A stretch of DNA of 14,369 nt from a virus: UHGV virus genome UHGV-0126033; one strand, given 5' to 3'. A program made the translations under genes and the position numbers. Below the pieces are notes generated by a model that saw nothing but the letters and a program-made list of their open reading frames with translations, had not been told where the DNA came from and searched no databases. Of this stretch, positions 2,699 to 14,358 are shown piece by piece; within the stretch, counting starts at the first letter, position 1, and the number at the start of each line of letters is the position of its first letter.

Positions 2699-3175
2699 TT
2701 ATTTAAGTACATTAACAGATGCATAAGCATGCATCTTTGCTTTAGCTTTCAGGTAGGCATCTCGCGCTGCGTGTTCGCAGTCAAAGTGCCCGAGGTGTGT
2801 TGTCTTACCATTTAGCTGTATGTAGGCCCGCCACTTGTTAGCTCGGGAATCCCAACAATAGCCTTTCCACACAGAGTTCTGAGCGTTACCTGATTTGTCA
2901 ACTAGGCGCAGGTTCTCAATTCTATTGTCTGCTTTATCCAGATTAATGTGGTCCACCATCAACCCTTGGGGTATATCCCCGTGATGCATGAACCAAACAA
3001 GCCGGTGTGCATACTCTCTCACCCGTCCCGCTGCCCCGCGGTCCCAGGTCACGCGGCGGTATCCCCAGTTATTCTGGTAGGTATCACCGAAACGACCTGT
3101 GGCCTTGTTAATCAAGCGCCCGTCTTCTGTGTAGGTGTAGCGATTAGCTAGTTCTTGCAAGAGATTAATCTCCAT
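2699..3175 (-). CDS. Free-standing HNH homing endonuclease with AP2-like DNA-binding domain
   Basis: 158 aa. HNH region YAHRLVWFMHHGDIPQGLMVDHINLDKADNRIENLRLV and AP2-like region WDSRANKWRAYIQLNGKTTHLGHFDCEHAARDAY. No clear Shine-Dalgarno; starts 12 nt after the scaffold stop. Confidence 0.85.
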   Translation of the reverse strand: MEINLLQELANRYTYTEDGRLINKATGRFGDTYQNNWGYRRVTWDRGAAGRVREYAHRLVWFMHHGDIPQGLMVDHINLDKADNRIENLRLVDKSGNAQNSVWKGYCWDSRANKWRAYIQLNGKTTHLGHFDCEHAARDAYLKAKAKMHAYASVNVLK

Positions 3176-6378: not shown

Positions 6379-8847
6379 TTAGCAGAAGAAGAACGGGGAT
6401 TCTAGCACTTGCCGGATGTCCAAAGTGCCCACTTCCGGCATGTCCAGGTCCGTCAAGTCTGCCCCGGCTGCTGCTGCCGCGCGAGTAATGTAGCCAAGCA
6501 GGTCATTCTCTTCATACAGGCGCACAAACTGCTCACGGATGTGCCTATGCATAGCGTCAACGTCAGCTGCGTGAGTAGCCAGCGAGTCGTGAATAGGCAC
6601 AATGTCCAACCCCTCCGCAGCACAGAGCACCATCATCAAGTGCGTACTGTCCAGGCTATGCACAAAGTTCGGGGCAATCCCGGAGGCTGCCTTGCGCTTG
6701 TTGCAAGTTTTGAAGTCCCGGTTGTGTACCAGTACCGCTGACAGGTTCATGCAGTCAATACGTACGCGCACTTCTTCACGCTGCGTGTAGCGGTTCATTA
6801 CGAGCCCACCCAGCGGCGTATACCACTGCAGATGCTGGCTTGCCGGTACACGCCTAGCGAGGTTCTGCAAGTACCCCATAACTGCGGCTGCGGCTGGGTT
6901 TGCCTCCTCGATAGCAGTGCGCATACGCGGAGCCAGGTAGCATGACAAGTTCCACAGACTGTTAGTCTCAGTACCCTCGTACCCCTCAGCGCAAGCGCCT
7001 TCGAAGATGTAGTCGCTGCAGCTGCGCACAGTGGCGCTGTAGAAGTAGGTCATACTAGGGCGCTTGGTCATGCTGCGGGTGATTTCGTTCTCTCTCCAGT
7101 ACGTGCTCTGGATAACGAAATCCTCCTTGTCCAGGTCCAGTATCACCTTCTCGTCCGTACGGCGCTTCACGTCCATGTACAGGTCCGCTTTCTTATCATT
7201 ACCCTCCCAGTACAGGTTCGTCAAGCGTCCGCCCACAGGGTCTCTCAGGAGCGCTGAGAGATGCTGTCCACCTGAGTTTGTAGCGTCCATAGCAACTGGG
7301 ATTCGGCTAATATGCTCTTCTGGGCATCCAGAACGAACCGCATTAACCAAGTCGATAGCGGCGGCCAGCAGGCACCAGGGGCTATCCGCAGAGGAAAAAG
7401 CAGGGGCATCAAGAGGAGAATCCGCGAGCCTCTCAATCTCTGCATAGTTCGCATCAACCCAAGCTGCACGGTCTTCGAATAGGGTTTTGTCATAACCAAA
7501 GCAAGTGGCGACGTGCACTTTAAGCCAGAAAAGTCCGCGCTCTCCCAGAGGCTTGCCACGTCCGAATTCAAGAAGGGCTTTCTGCAAATCAGAACCTTGG
7601 GGATGCAGCGAGGACTTGAAGTACAGGCGGTAGCGCCAGTCCACACAAGTCGGGAAGTACAGGGCTTTCTCATCTTTGAATTCCTCCGCCATTTCCAGCG
7701 TGGTCAACAGGCTGCGTAGTTGTGACACACGCTTACGGTCTGCGCTGTACCATAGGGACATGCGCGTCTTCCACTCACCGAAGCGGCCCAGTTCTTCTTC
7801 GGTGTAGTTCTCTTTTGGTACTCCATCCAAGTACCACTCCGGTTTAGGCTCTGGTACTGAGCGGGGCATGCCCACCCCAATACCCAGGGCCCGTGCTTCT
7901 TGCACCAGTTCCAGTATGCGCTTATTAATACGGTATGGGGTTTCCTGTGCCTTATTAAGCGCCTTCTTGATGCCGTCCGCGGACTTAAATGCTTCCGCTA
8001 CTTCACGGAGTCGCGCGCGGTCGATGTGCGAGTTGTGATAGGTCCCGCGATTGTCGATGGGGGTAAGGTACCCGCCATCCCACATAGTGGTGTGCTGTAC
8101 CGGTGGCACCAGCATAGGCGGCTTCATGGTTACGGTATCAGCGGACTCTACCAGTTTCTGGAAGGCCTCCATAACATCGTCAGCCGGGTAGAGCATGCTC
8201 AGGTTCCCACTACAGTTCTTCCATTGGAACAGGCCAGTCTCAAACACCGCGGCACATAGCAGCCGACCTACTGAGATATTCTGGGAGTTGGTCCATGGCT
8301 CGTGCCCATAGTGCACGTTCTCAGCACTGGCCCGCAGCGTACGCAGGATGTGCGTGGGAGACTTGGTCTTACGCTCCGTAAGGTACTCGTACACACGGTC
8401 CATGTACGCCGGAGCCACGTTGCGTAACTGCAGGGCCAGCAGTTCCGATTGTACGTTCCGGCCCAGCGCGGACATTACCGCCTGTGCAGTCTGGCGGCGG
8501 CTAGCGGACTCGCCAGGAGCTACGCTAAATGCCTCAAACATTGTGCATAGGCTCAGGGTGGTCAGGACATCCAAGGGGACTAAGCGCAGGAACCGGCGGT
8601 ACTTACCGCCAATGCCCGGGGCTTTTACATTTCGCATCTCATCGATAGCGGCGGCGGCCACCTCATATGCCGAGGTGAGCATACGCTGCGTCATCGGCAG
8701 GTTCATAATCCCACCGTTCTGCAATGCGTCCGTAATCAGCTTACGTGCCCGCTCGATTCCGCGAATCTTATAGGTCTCTTCAAGCTCCAGCTGGCGTTTC
8801 ACCAGTGCTTCCTCTGGTACTACAACCGTATTCAGGGCGCTAATCAT
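6379..8847 (-). CDS. Single-subunit DNA-directed RNA polymerase (T7 RNAP family)
   Basis: 822 aa. Matches to T7 RNAP conserved blocks: YFPTCVDWRYRLY and HPQGSD, DATNSGGQHLSALLRD (motif A aspartate), ASGIAPNFVHSLDSTHL, IHDSLAT (motif C aspartate), C-terminal LESPFFFC (T7 ends ESDFAFA). ATG at 8845-8847 with AAGGAGA upstream. Confidence 0.95.
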   Translation of the reverse strand: MISALNTVVVPEEALVKRQLELEETYKIRGIERARKLITDALQNGGIMNLPMTQRMLTSAYEVAAAAIDEMRNVKAPGIGGKYRRFLRLVPLDVLTTLSLCTMFEAFSVAPGESASRRQTAQAVMSALGRNVQSELLALQLRNVAPAYMDRVYEYLTERKTKSPTHILRTLRASAENVHYGHEPWTNSQNISVGRLLCAAVFETGLFQWKNCSGNLSMLYPADDVMEAFQKLVESADTVTMKPPMLVPPVQHTTMWDGGYLTPIDNRGTYHNSHIDRARLREVAEAFKSADGIKKALNKAQETPYRINKRILELVQEARALGIGVGMPRSVPEPKPEWYLDGVPKENYTEEELGRFGEWKTRMSLWYSADRKRVSQLRSLLTTLEMAEEFKDEKALYFPTCVDWRYRLYFKSSLHPQGSDLQKALLEFGRGKPLGERGLFWLKVHVATCFGYDKTLFEDRAAWVDANYAEIERLADSPLDAPAFSSADSPWCLLAAAIDLVNAVRSGCPEEHISRIPVAMDATNSGGQHLSALLRDPVGGRLTNLYWEGNDKKADLYMDVKRRTDEKVILDLDKEDFVIQSTYWRENEITRSMTKRPSMTYFYSATVRSCSDYIFEGACAEGYEGTETNSLWNLSCYLAPRMRTAIEEANPAAAAVMGYLQNLARRVPASQHLQWYTPLGGLVMNRYTQREEVRVRIDCMNLSAVLVHNRDFKTCNKRKAASGIAPNFVHSLDSTHLMMVLCAAEGLDIVPIHDSLATHAADVDAMHRHIREQFVRLYEENDLLGYITRAAAAAGADLTDLDMPEVGTLDIRQVLESPFFFC

Positions 8848-8988
8848 AGGCGCTTAGTCTCCTTGGTTATGTCCGGTACTTCTAACTACTGATTGCGACT
8901 TACCCAGAGATTGTACATCTCCAGGTAGTCTTTAGCGGCGCGTTCGTCTCCCCGCTCTACTGCTTTCTGCCACATCCCGTGGCACCAC

Positions 8989-9444
8989 TCACTTGGCGTC
9001 AATGCACTTACCTCTGTGTTGCTCGTATAGTTCTGAGTACTTGTCGGACTTGGCAATGTCTTGTTCCAGCTTATCCTTGTTCCCGGCGCGCAGTCTGTAC
9101 TTGAGCCGGTTCCCCAGGCAGTATCCGTAGAACTGCTCTTTCGTCATACTGCGTGCAATCACCTCAATTGCCTCCAGGTCCGGGAAGAACTGGTAGTGCT
9201 TGGGTGAGTTCACTGCGTCGGGCGCTTGTGTGCTGGTTATGGGGACTTCCCCCGCTACATGGAAGTAGTCCGCGCGCCAACCGCCAGCTAGGTCTCCGCT
9301 TAGTGTAATTGTGGTGCCACTAACCTCAAGCACCTCCCTGGAGGCGTATGGGGAGATATGAAGAGACTCGCAGATTCGAGACCAGTCACCCGACACGTGC
9401 GTAGCTTTACGAACTACCACATCACCAACTTTAATATTACTCAT
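8989..9444 (-). CDS. T7 gp1.7-like protein (DUF3310 C-terminal domain; putative nucleotide kinase) with a different N-terminal domain
   Basis: 151 aa. C-terminal HYQFFPDLEAIEVIARSMTKEQFYGYCLGNRLKYRLRAGNK resembles the T7 gp1.7 C-terminus (HYMLFDDIEAIEVIARSMTVEQFKGYCFGNILKYRLRAGKK) as recalled. N-terminal 70 aa (MSNIKVGDVVVRK...) lacks the T7 gp1.7 Cys-rich region. ATG at 9442-9444 overlaps the endonuclease VII stop as ATGA. Confidence 0.7.
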   Translation of the reverse strand: MSNIKVGDVVVRKATHVSGDWSRICESLHISPYASREVLEVSGTTITLSGDLAGGWRADYFHVAGEVPITSTQAPDAVNSPKHYQFFPDLEAIEVIARSMTKEQFYGYCLGNRLKYRLRAGNKDKLEQDIAKSDKYSELYEQHRGKCIDAK

Positions 9445-9884
9445 TTAATAGTCTCCCGTGCTTTACGTCGTGCCCGGGCCTTGCGGGCCTTGAGCTTCTG
9501 TGCCTGCGCCAATTCTTCCGGCGTCTTGTGCGTATAGTATAGCATATCCGTAGGTTCGCGGTCTAAGTAATCGGCGACCCTACGTAGAGATTCAGCAATA
9601 GCCCCAGAAGATTGCATGCTACCAACAATCCAGCGCCCAGCGGCAGATGCCACTTTGCCTTCCCCTCCATTGCACGAGCGATGAAGAGCACCCCGAATAC
9701 GCCCAGTAATATGATCGTGGTCAACGACAACAGAATCACCAGTTACCCCCTTGATTGTGAAGTCCAAAGGTTTGCCACAAAGGGGGCAGATACCTCCCTG
9801 GTCTTTGGCAAGCTTAATTGCCACGGAGCGAATCTGTGCCCGTGTAATCTTCCGCAGACTCATACGTATATGAACCCCCACCAT
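9441..9884 (-). CDS. Endonuclease VII-like Holliday-junction resolvase (T4 gp49 family)
   Basis: CPLCGKPL followed by VVVDHDHITGRIRGALHRSCNGGEG, the zinc-binding and DHDH pattern of endonuclease VII. Start uncertain: ATG at 9884 has no Shine-Dalgarno; ATG at 9863 (MSLRK...) has a G-rich stretch upstream. Confidence 0.8.
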   Translation of the reverse strand: MVGVHIRMSLRKITRAQIRSVAIKLAKDQGGICPLCGKPLDFTIKGVTGDSVVVDHDHITGRIRGALHRSCNGGEGKVASAAGRWIVGSMQSSGAIAESLRRVADYLDREPTDMLYYTHKTPEELAQAQKLKARKARARRKARETIK

Positions 9885-9983
9885 AAATGCGCGGAGCGTA
9901 TGTGAGCTACGGTCAGTGCCGGAGACATCACCTCTCCGGTGTTAGTGCACCTAACCTGAACCCCTTGCTGTGGGGCGGGTTCC

Positions 9984-10011
9984 AATATATACACGTCTTG
10001 TGTATCCTCAA
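9984..10011 (-). promoter_or_regulatory. Candidate sigma70-like promoter (TTGAGG, 16 nt, TATATT) in the intergenic region upstream of the endonuclease VII gene
   Basis: On the minus strand TTGAGG (plus 10006-10011) and TATATT (plus 9984-9989) with a 16-nt spacer. Match by eye only, in the most AT-rich part of an otherwise GC-richer window. Confidence 0.25.
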
Positions 10012-10032
10012 AAGTATATTCTCTACCCATTT

Positions 10033-10233
10033 CTAACATAGTTCAATCTCCCCCACTACATCCAGCATAGCATTGTCGTGAATGAGAGAATCCAAATGCT
10101 CAACCGTTCTTCGATGTGTTTTGGGTGCTCGTTCACGCAGCGCAACCAGAATAGTTTCAAGTTCATCATGTTTCCCCTCGTAGTATAACTCAATCGCCCG
10201 CAGGCTCATTTCCTTCGCAGACATCTTCGCCAT
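10033..10233 (-). CDS. Hypothetical small acidic protein (66 aa from the ATG at 10233)
   Basis: Track ORF 10033..10302. The ATG at 10231-10233 (MAKMSAKEM...) has AGGAG 12 nt upstream and overlaps the exonuclease 3' end by 44 nt. Glu/Asp-rich. No motif. Confidence 0.45.
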   Translation of the reverse strand: MAKMSAKEMSLRAIELYYEGKHDELETILVALRERAPKTHRRTVEHLDSLIHDNAMLDVVGEIELC

Positions 10234-11158
10234 TGTCTGGGTGCTCCTGTATCCACTGTATATGCTGTTTATGGTACTCGTGCAGCGAATGCACCCAGTC
10301 ACGCAGACTGGGAGTAGTCAACAGTGACATCAGATACAGGTACGCTGAATCTGACGGGGAGCGCCGCAGGAACAGGCATTCTGCCTCTGCGAGTACATCT
10401 TGGTTGTTTCGAGCGTAAGCCGCTACAACGAATTCTGCGGCGTCCTGCTCTGAGGTAATAGGGTAGATAGCATCAAAGGCCGTTCGCTTCCCACAGAGCT
10501 TCCCATCAAGCAATGTGATGCCTTTGACGTTATCTGCGTCATCTCCTGCTAGCATCTGCCACCAGAAGAACTTAGTGCCATGCGCTCGTACCGGCATAGC
10601 CTGGGTATCATCCCACTTAATCCATCCGAAGGGGTTATCCAAGGCAGGCCATACGGTTCCGGTTGGGATATCGAACCGGGCCATAGGGCTGAGCCAGGAG
10701 TCCTTGTCCTGAGACATCAGGATTCCACGGTCCCCGAAGCTGTACGAATCCATTATGAACAGGTCATCCGCCTCGAAGTAGTCACTGCTTACTACCTGAA
10801 TACCCTGCTCAGAATACTGGTCTGGATTTTCAATCAGGTGCCGCTTCAATGGCGCCTTGAGCGGTAGCTCCTGTCGATTAGCGCGCTGCCCCTGATAGGG
10901 CTTAGCCGTAGGCAGGTGCCAGCGCAAACACTTGGCGCATCCCGTAGGCGTCAGATACGCAACTGCTTCTGAGCAGCCGACCAGGAACATGTCCTCAAGC
11001 ACCAGCTGATAGAAGCGGCGTATTGCGGTGTCCAAACGTTTCACTGTAGCGGCAGATTTATAAACTGTGAAATCCGCATCGTACAGCAGAATCTTCCCAG
11101 AGTTCTGCGGAGCTAACTGCTCCCCGAGCTGGGACAAGTCAACCCCGTTGATAATCAT
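10190..11158 (-). CDS. 5'-3' exonuclease (FEN family, T7 gp6-like)
   Basis: 322 aa. Acidic active-site blocks in the expected order: ILLYDADFTVYKSA, FEADDLFIMD, MSQDKDSW, LAGDDADNVKGI. ATG at 11156-11158. Confidence 0.8.
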   Translation of the reverse strand: MIINGVDLSQLGEQLAPQNSGKILLYDADFTVYKSAATVKRLDTAIRRFYQLVLEDMFLVGCSEAVAYLTPTGCAKCLRWHLPTAKPYQGQRANRQELPLKAPLKRHLIENPDQYSEQGIQVVSSDYFEADDLFIMDSYSFGDRGILMSQDKDSWLSPMARFDIPTGTVWPALDNPFGWIKWDDTQAMPVRAHGTKFFWWQMLAGDDADNVKGITLLDGKLCGKRTAFDAIYPITSEQDAAEFVVAAYARNNQDVLAEAECLFLRRSPSDSAYLYLMSLLTTPSLRDWVHSLHEYHKQHIQWIQEHPDNGEDVCEGNEPAGD

Positions 11159-13500: not shown

Positions 13501-14358
13501 TTATTTAGTACGACCAACCCAACGACCATCGTCGTCAAGCAGCATCGGAATTAACTGCGGGCAACCCTCGGTGATTACCATCACACCCAGGATTGGTTTC
13601 TTGCGGGTGAGTCTGCCGTAAGCAAAGGCCATGCTCTTACGGTCAATCAGACACCCAGCATACGCACCAAAGTACAAAGCTGTTGAGCTAGCTGCATATT
13701 GCACCTCAAAGCGACCATGTTCGTGACCAAGGACAAGGCTGGTTCTTTCGTGGCTAGCGTTGAGCATGAAGTCACCCGACACTTGATGCTGGAATCTAAC
13801 CGGGCCAAGTGGGGTATTGAGTACCCACGCGTCAGCCCAAGACCACGCCGGGGCACCATGTTCAGGGAAAAGTATATCTCGGTACTTCTTGATGAATTGC
13901 ACTGGTAGCCCGTGAGCTTTCGCCCTGCGGTAAACCAGACTGCCGTGATTGGAATCGCAAACCAATAGGTTCGGGAACAGTTCATGTAGCTCCTCCAGTA
14001 CGAGCTTAGCTTTCTCCAGCTCCACCCCGGCGCTATCCAGGTTCGGGTTACTTTCGTGGAATGATATAGCGTGGCCGTCCGTCTCGTCGCCTACCTGTAC
14101 AACCATGTCCGGACAGTAGGCGTCTCGCACAGATTCTAAGAAGGCCATAGCATCTACGTGCGTATAGGGGGCATGCAAATCCCCAACTACGAGAATACGG
14201 TGGCACACTTCCGGCACGAAGGTTTTGCCGATGTCATCAGTGGGACTGGGCTGTATGAGCTTTAGTGCCTCCTTCATGTGGGATATTGCCTTACCCTTGC
14301 TCCCAGCGTGGTCTAGGAATATGCTGCGCCAGTACTTCACCATCTGTCGATACACCAC
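13501..14358 (-). CDS. Calcineurin-like metallophosphoesterase (putative nuclease or phosphatase); 5' end uncertain, may extend past the window
   Basis: Metal-ligand motifs in canonical order: VVGDLHAPY, VQVGDETDGH, VCDSNHG, LVLGHEHG. Track start 14358 is a GTG and the frame is still open at the window edge; an ATG at 14341-14343 is an alternative start. Confidence 0.75.
   Translation of the reverse strand: MVYRQMVKYWRSIFLDHAGSKGKAISHMKEALKLIQPSPTDDIGKTFVPEVCHRILVVGDLHAPYTHVDAMAFLESVRDAYCPDMVVQVGDETDGHAISFHESNPNLDSAGVELEKAKLVLEELHELFPNLLVCDSNHGSLVYRRAKAHGLPVQFIKKYRDILFPEHGAPAWSWADAWVLNTPLGPVRFQHQVSGDFMLNASHERTSLVLGHEHGRFEVQYAASSTALYFGAYAGCLIDRKSMAFAYGRLTRKKPILGVMVITEGCPQLIPMLLDDDGRWVGRTK

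Follow-up and report, generated by a model that had tools for sequence, protein, structure and literature searches.

What kind of protein is encoded when the C-terminal domain of the phage T7 gp1.7 nucleotide kinase is preceded by an N-terminal region that T7 lacks, and how is such a gene maintained? The question is raised by an open reading frame (ORF) of the virus genome UHGV-0126033, which we analyzed within a stretch of 14,369 nucleotides (the window). The window belongs to the genome of a KP34-like podovirus of Klebsiella (Autographiviridae, Slopekvirinae, Drulisvirus); its region 8700-10100 matched 249 phage records in a megablast search, 233 of which were Klebsiella phages, at 82-97% identity. 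We found that the ORF, referred to below as the kinase ORF, is a real gene whose translation exactly matches the protein sequence quoted in a first-pass annotation of the same DNA (MSNIKVGDVVVRKATHVSGDW...). Its product is probably orthologous to that of T7 gene 1.7, as the Drulisvirus counterpart, and consists of two domains. This assessment is a joint one for the whole explanation developed here, which comprises a DUF3310 kinase core, an accessory barrel, cassette exchange and the mode of expression. The parts of the gene are as follows.

8989..9444, minus strand: gp1.7-family 'nucleotide kinase' coding sequence, 151 amino acids (aa) and TGA stop (ORF list, Pfam DUF3310, PHROGs)
9250..9444, minus strand: predicted SH3/KOW-like small beta-barrel module, codons 1-65 (the N-module)
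9214..9249, minus strand: flexible variable linker, codons 66-77
9214..9420, minus strand: mosaic hypervariable cassette, codons ~9-77, i.e., most of the N-module and the linker (sliding identity, synonymous divergence, blastn)
9034..9213, minus strand: DUF3310 (PF11753) helical domain, codons 78-137 (Pfam)
8992-9033, minus strand: conserved C-terminal tail to codon 151, which continues the DUF3310 domain

A conserved DUF3310 domain

The C-terminal part of the kinase ORF was found to be closely related to that of T7 gp1.7, as the first-pass annotation had proposed. Residues 78-137 matched PF11753 on profile positions 1-59 of 60 (74.4 bits vs. a gathering cutoff of 24, E 7.5e-21), and residues 115-194 of T7 gp1.7 aligned with residues 71-147 of the kinase ORF with 60% identity over 80 residues (BLASTP, E 1e-31). 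A total of 21-23 columns were invariant over T7, K11, Pharr, HC12, SP6, KP1-1 and the kinase ORF, and the positions kept from T7 to the kinase ORF include H83, Y84, E91, S99, G107, G111, N112, K115, Y116, R119, K123, D129, K132 and Y136. Among 120 listed homologues the mean pairwise identity of this domain was 94% and the minimum 81%. AlphaFold2, run with a 123-sequence alignment, predicted helices at residues 90-99, 102-120, 123-131 and 135-146. Besides, the kinase ORF matched phrog_2585, phrog_1689 and phrog_236, all of which are labelled 'nucleotide kinase', and the same label is given to its homologues in many Drulisvirus records, the nearest protein being KX1_23 (90% identical). The kinase gene is therefore ordinary in the sense that it is already annotated and PHROG-classified. 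NCBIfam contained no model for the kinase ORF, for T7 gp1.7 or for the small gp1.8-like ORF described below.

An SH3-like N-terminal module

The N-terminal part had been described as beta-rich and as unlike the Cys-rich region of T7, and both descriptions were confirmed. The N-module and residues 1-114 of T7 gp1.7 gave no BLASTP alignment and a profile hhalign probability of 0.2%; the N-module has a single Cys (C25). In the full-length AlphaFold2 model, the N-domain had a predicted local distance difference test score (pLDDT) of 80-88 and was followed by a disordered linker (residues 66-85, pLDDT <50), which also showed high column entropy. When modelled alone, the N-domain reached a pLDDT of 88.9 and a predicted template modelling score (pTM) of 0.73, with five strands and one helix. 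The N-module is confidently predicted to fold as an SH3-like five-stranded small barrel. Its residues 1-73 matched no Pfam family at E values up to 1, and no Foldseek match reached E 0.001. Compared with known SH3-like small beta-barrels (KOW of Spt5/L24, Tudor/PWWP, NdhS, the C-domain of FeoA/IdeR and HERC2/MIB), it belongs to none of these families by sequence, and the resemblance in fold assigns no ligand.

Although no Pfam family was found for the N-terminal region by itself, the region is part of a full-length profile: phrog_1689 aligned residues 2-150 of the kinase ORF on profile positions 91-241 of 243 (E 3e-38), and SP6 gp23 occupied the same profile positions. Of the 1272 phage records that matched, 302 covered at least 80% of the kinase protein, among them SP6 gp23 and K1-5-type Vectreviruses. 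All 120 listed homologues carried the N-module and, save one 110-aa entry, were 146-163 aa long with the same layout. Residues G7, R12, W21 and W56 were invariant in these homologues, and D8, V10, V38, L48 and F61 were near-invariant. Judged by sequence, the N-module is a standard, conserved part of the protein in KP34-, SP6- and K1-5-like phages, and it is absent from T7; no model in Pfam or NCBIfam matches it. The unusual character that the first-pass annotation had implied for the fusion did not hold up, since the N-terminal region proved to be common and conserved in this subfamily; the fusion is ordinary for Drulisvirus.

Copies outside this setting were also found. An exhaustive phmmer search with residues 1-73 against 1.84 billion representatives gave 8 matches, of which three (P0124, P0126 and P0128) were judged real; the other five (P0121, P0122, P0123, P0125 and P0127) were long repeat or low-complexity proteins and were rejected as spurious. 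Among metagenomic proteins, the N-module stood alone in P0124, P0129 and P0130 (68-77 aa) and occurred as a tandem pair in P0128, which also gave a marginal SH3_6 match under the cutoff (E 0.012). A word-indexed protein search with the N-module alone found no match, the index being too coarse for a divergent 67-aa domain; with the N-module alignment, the same coarse index returned three stand-alone proteins of 68-77 aa only. G7, V10, W21 and F61 were retained in the stand-alone and tandem copies. In sequenced phages, the N-module was almost confined to the nucleotide-kinase gene, gp12 of Pectobacterium phage Jarilo being the exception.

A mosaic cassette within the gene

The two parts of the gene differed sharply in variability. 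In sliding profiles, the cassette showed 27-53% nucleotide identity to K51, KpV71, JKP2 and RCIP0106, whereas both flanks were 90-100% identical; the conserved flanks are the first eight codons (MSKFKVGD) and the 3' end of the endonuclease VII gene on one side and the start of DUF3310 on the other. When the 207-nt cassette was used in a blastn search, only three phages were found in four records (KX1, KpV475 and VLCpiA1a), whereas the adjacent 222 nt of DUF3310 DNA matched 641 records with the same settings. The best DUF3310 DNA matches, RCIP0106 and OU509534 (98.6%), both lacked the N-block of the window; KX1 had the nearest N-block (87%), yet was not among the nearest C-domain matches. Similarly, in the 120 homologues the N-part had a mean pairwise identity of 41% (minimum 21%) and a column entropy of ~2 bits, vs. 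0.18 for the C-part, and clustering gave one cluster for the C-domain, while the N-block was divided into 8 classes when the identity threshold was 50% and into 17 when it was 60%. The N-class of the window accounted for 16 of the 120 protein clusters.

Codon analysis gave the same picture. Between the window and RCIP0106, synonymous divergence (dS) was 0.07 in DUF3310, while the proportion of synonymous differences (pS) in the N-module was 0.83, i.e., saturated, and similar contrasts were obtained with K51, KpV71 and JKP2; DUF3310 dS was 0.07-0.5 while the synonymous sites of the cassette were saturated. Within classes, the N-module had a ratio of nonsynonymous to synonymous divergence (dN/dS) of 0.2-0.38 and the C-domain one of 0.02-0.04. 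Both domains are therefore functional and under purifying selection, the N-module being about ten times less constrained than the C-domain.

The simplest reading is that the cassette represents ancient N-module alleles that were swapped by homologous recombination between conserved flanks. Recombination would use the first 8 codons and the end of the endonuclease VII gene on one side and the start of DUF3310 on the other, and such exchange would leave many ancient allele classes circulating on near-identical backbones. A diversity-generating retroelement was also considered as a source of the variation and was dropped, because indels were present and all base types varied; neither the ORF list of the window nor the matched families pointed to a reverse transcriptase gene. 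No description of a variable N-region was found in a literature search on Drulisvirus and nucleotide kinase, and the bounded hypervariable cassette and the mobility of the module appear to be undescribed in the searchable literature.

Two further observations concern mosaicism in these phages. A swap in the opposite sense was seen in Klebsiella phage KP1-1, in which an N-module of the KpV71/JKP2 class (dS 0.4-0.6) was joined to a very different DUF3310 domain (proportion of nonsynonymous differences, pN, 0.42). An HNH endonuclease gene directly follows the kinase gene of KP1-1 (L007:601-1510), and the C-domain replacement in this phage is possibly homing-associated. Besides, a second sharply bounded mosaic block was observed at ~9860-10040 (minus strand), just upstream of the endonuclease VII gene. 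Over this block, identity to KpV71, JKP2 and RCIP0106 fell to 30-60%; KpV475 lacks the segment, and in other phages the position is taken by different ORFs or an HNH endonuclease. A 59-aa ORF within the block (9860-10039, minus strand) had no Pfam or PHROG match.

Relationship to other phages

T7 gp1.7 has the same Pfam domain as the kinase ORF in its C-terminal 80 residues. It differs in its 114-residue Cys-rich N-region, which has no detectable similarity to the SH3-like module. As in the window, T7 gene 1.7 lies in DNA-metabolism surroundings and is followed by overlapping gp1.8; however, gene 1.7 comes after ligase and gene 1.6 in T7, whereas the kinase ORF comes after endonuclease VII. 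SP6 gp23, K1-5 gp23 and the Drulisvirus kinase have the same two-domain architecture (44% identity over 99% for SP6 gp23), and the N-module of the SP6 gp23 group has the same conserved core as that of the kinase ORF. The differences are that the kinase gene of SP6 is not adjacent to endonuclease VII and that the N-cassette of the window is of a rare class, found by DNA in only 3 sequenced phages. Across Autographiviridae, the region before DUF3310 is the variable part: it is Cys-rich in T7, K11 and Pharr, a different module in HC12, and an SH3-like barrel in SP6, K1-5 and KP34. The N-terminal module of HC12 (Kayfunavirus) was rejected as an N-module homologue (hhalign 3%) despite a long gapped tblastn alignment.

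The N-module also occurs in Jarilo gp12 (L014:829-1605, P0126, 258 aa; hhalign probability 96.4%, E 1.3e-9). In this T7-like phage, the gp12 gene takes the place of gene 1.7, with ligase/gene 1.6 on one side and the RNA polymerase (RNAP) inhibitor on the other. Jarilo gp12 differs in having two tandem N-modules and a C-domain that falls into PHROGs 35442, 4521 and 7063 ('3'-phosphatase, 5'-polynucleotide kinase'). A motif seen by eye in this C-domain (E..I..H....F..GNAFK) suggested DUF3310, but neither Pfam nor hhalign supported this assignment.

Proposed function and alternative explanations

It has been reported that T7 gp1.7 is a dTMP/dGMP kinase (as cited in PMC11897194 and PMC7693777). 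By homology, the DUF3310 domain (residues 78-151) most likely phosphorylates dGMP or dTMP with a (d)NTP as the donor, and in this way dNMPs freed by the two neighboring nucleases, the exonuclease and endonuclease VII, would become available for the synthesis of phage DNA. Phosphate is likely bound by the invariant basic motif (GN..KY.LRAG.K...D..K), the T7 enzyme being metal-independent, and these Lys/Arg-rich positions could plausibly stand in for a metal ion in phosphate binding. The N-module (residues 1-65, with its flexible linker) would replace the Cys-rich N-region of T7 as an accessory module, and it most likely serves assembly or the binding of a partner, protein or nucleic acid, and not catalysis.

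Several points weigh against this explanation. Kinase activity is established for T7 gp1.7 only, and the combination of a barrel with DUF3310 lies outside the assayed set. The active forms of T7 gp1.7 are reportedly the full-length protein and one starting at M42, both of which keep the Cys-rich region; as this region is absent here, DUF3310 alone is no more than a candidate catalytic unit. The model of the C-domain was of moderate confidence (pLDDT 66-87) with no confident packing between the domains (pTM 0.40), and sequence/profile and fold searches gave no informative PDB relative of DUF3310 and hence no structure-backed catalytic site. The codon analysis was based on 9 genes only. With regard to the T7 protein, which is a large oligomer, we observed that gp1.7 of K11 and Pharr starts with MTEREIQ, aligned to M42 of T7 (MTEREQE); these starts would fit the use of an internal start codon in T7 and, with it, a shorter gp1.7 that occurs naturally. 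Pharr gp1.7 contains an additional Cys-rich insertion and is extended at its C-terminus.

Three other explanations were weighed against the kinase with an exchangeable accessory barrel. The first to be considered leaves the kinase role of DUF3310 intact and regards the N-module as a surface in an arms race, acting in evasion or as a decoy, or binding a variable host defense or host factor, its diversity being held by diversifying or balancing selection. The reported activation of EfAvs5 by T7 gp1.7 (PMC11897194) gave rise to such a host-interaction reading, which agrees with the many deep, sharp-edged N-block classes on near-identical backbones, with the mobility of the N-module (alone, in tandem or with other C-domains) and with the use of SH3/KOW/Tudor-like barrels as typical interaction modules. 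However, the within-class dN/dS of the N-module indicates purifying and not overall positive selection, Avs5 may sense any part of gp1.7 and T7 has no N-module at all, any partner of the N-module is hypothetical, and mosaic blocks, including the second one ~400 nt away, are common in these phages without a proven link to immunity. We regard as unlikely a role of the N-module as a cassette for specificity or evasion which touches a variable host component, such as an Avs5-kind sensor or a neutralized defense protein, and leaves the kinase core untouched. Far less credible is the view that the N-part is a dispensable leader under relaxed constraint, whose divergence arose in situ by rapid neutral drift, neither cassette exchange nor a functional domain being involved. 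The high column entropy of the N-part and the absence of the N-module from T7 gp1.7, an active enzyme, would fit this view, but drift in place cannot yield saturated synonymous sites beside DUF3310 DNA of such low dS in the same gene. It is also contradicted by nearest relatives that differ between the two halves (RCIP0106 for the C-domain, KX1 for the N-block), by four invariant and about eight near-invariant residues, by the confident fold and by a within-class dN/dS below 0.4. The codon, sliding-identity and blastn data already contradict drift.

It is also conceivable, though in our view somewhat less probable than the arms race, that the protein is not a nucleotide kinase: DUF3310 would be a generic helical domain for oligomerization or binding, the activity of T7 gp1.7 would come from its Cys-rich N-region, and the kinase ORF would have another role, e.g., in DNA/RNA binding or modulation of a host protein. 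DUF3310 is the sole region common to T7 and the kinase ORF, it is found behind many unrelated N-terminal regions (T7/K11/Pharr, HC12 and the kinase ORF), and the 'nucleotide kinase' labels in databases are propagated annotation. A mycobacteriophage DUF3310 protein was strongly toxic on overexpression (PMC9339283), and KOW/Tudor-like barrels are often nucleic-acid binders. On the other hand, the 60% identity to T7, with all charged and aromatic positions kept, argues for a conserved biochemical function; purifying selection acts very strongly on the C-domain, and the gene stays among DNA-metabolism genes, beside a gp1.8 homologue. The reading as a DUF3310 kinase with an accessory barrel remains the one we favor.

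Gene neighborhood and expression

All genes of the window are on the minus strand, as seen from the ORF list and the Pfam/PHROG matches, and the kinase ORF lies inside a DNA-metabolism block that consists of metallo-phosphoesterase, exonuclease, endonuclease VII, kinase, gp1.8 homologue and RNAP. The neighboring features are listed in gene order.

13501-14358, minus strand: metallo-phosphoesterase, first in gene order, followed by several small ORFs and a phrog_862 protein
10190-11158, minus strand: exonuclease, followed by two small ORFs and then endonuclease VII
9441..9884, minus strand: endonuclease VII, longest ORF (PF02945, 45.1 bits vs. a cutoff of 23.6, E 9.5e-12; phrog_423, E 2.6e-45)
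9453..9457, minus strand: GGGAG, resembling a Shine-Dalgarno sequence, 8 nt before the ATG of the kinase ORF and within the coding end of endonuclease VII
9441..9444, minus strand: ATGA start/stop overlap (TCAT on the plus strand)
8886..9056, minus strand: small ORF homologous to T7 gp1.8, overlapping the 3' end of the kinase ORF (phrog_1312, E 3.5e-20; BLASTP vs. T7 gp1.8, E 2e-8)
6379-8847, minus strand: single-subunit RNAP, after the kinase ORF and the small gp1.8-like ORF
beyond RNAP, minus strand: portal, scaffold, HNH endonuclease and major capsid protein

The overlap of the kinase start with the endonuclease VII stop, which the first-pass annotation had pointed out together with translational coupling, was found at 9441-9444. 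The coding-strand sequence at the junction is ...GAG ACT ATT AAA TGA, and the kinase ATG (9444-9442), made of the last A of AAA and the following TG, overlaps the endonuclease VII TGA (9443-9441). The same 4-nt overlap was present in all 8 Drulisvirus-type loci inspected (KX1, KP1-1, VLCpiA1a, K51PH129C1, KpV71, JKP2, RCIP0106 and KpV475), which makes it ordinary for this group, and no terminator-like site was found between the two genes. Because overlapping start/stop junctions (ATGA, TTGA, TAATG and TGATG) occur at ~6 of the 22 gene junctions of the window, translational coupling is plausible but ordinary, as is typical of compact phage operons. One transcript would carry both endonuclease VII and the kinase, whose translation may be coupled to that of endonuclease VII by way of the ATGA, and the Shine-Dalgarno-like motif could also allow the kinase to initiate on its own. 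As for endonuclease VII itself, its true start is probably M8 (ATG at 9863) and not the first ATG (9884), because the phrog_423 alignment begins at residue 9 and the annotated length of homologues is 423 nt. The ATG at 9863 forms a second ATGA overlap, with the stop of the upstream 59-aa ORF.

At the other end of the kinase gene, the small ORF has the SEWC..MW...Y..Y.LW.SR.Q motif in common with T7 gp1.8, the conserved part running from ~9002 downward. This homology means that T7 and Drulisvirus have kept genes 1.7 and 1.8 as an overlapping pair. Two starts are candidates for the small ORF, a TTG at 9002, which is preceded by AGAGG, and an ATG at 8975; its annotation is inconsistent among phages (171 nt in KpV71, 93 nt in K51PH129C1 and none in others). 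Farther away, the HNH endonuclease gene (2699-3175, minus strand, 158 aa; phrog_99, E 3.7e-46) lies between the scaffold and major capsid genes and is probably a homing endonuclease insertion.

Implications

The kinase gene itself is routine, and the finding of the fusion changes little; what is added, modestly but in testable form, is the N-cassette and the mobility of its module. In hundreds of entries, the 'nucleotide kinase' label is based on DUF3310 alone, and a protein with a barrel in place of the region that accompanies this domain in T7 offers a natural test of whether DUF3310 by itself is the smallest known, metal-independent nucleotide kinase. In addition, a sharply bounded polymorphic cassette in a near-invariant gene is a pattern usual for host-interaction genes. 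Because gp1.7 has been reported as an Avs5 trigger, this polymorphism may mark an unrecognized phage-host interface in therapeutic Klebsiella phages. If the evasion-cassette reading were true, it would represent 'tail-fibre-like' mosaicism at the level of a domain inside a metabolic enzyme.

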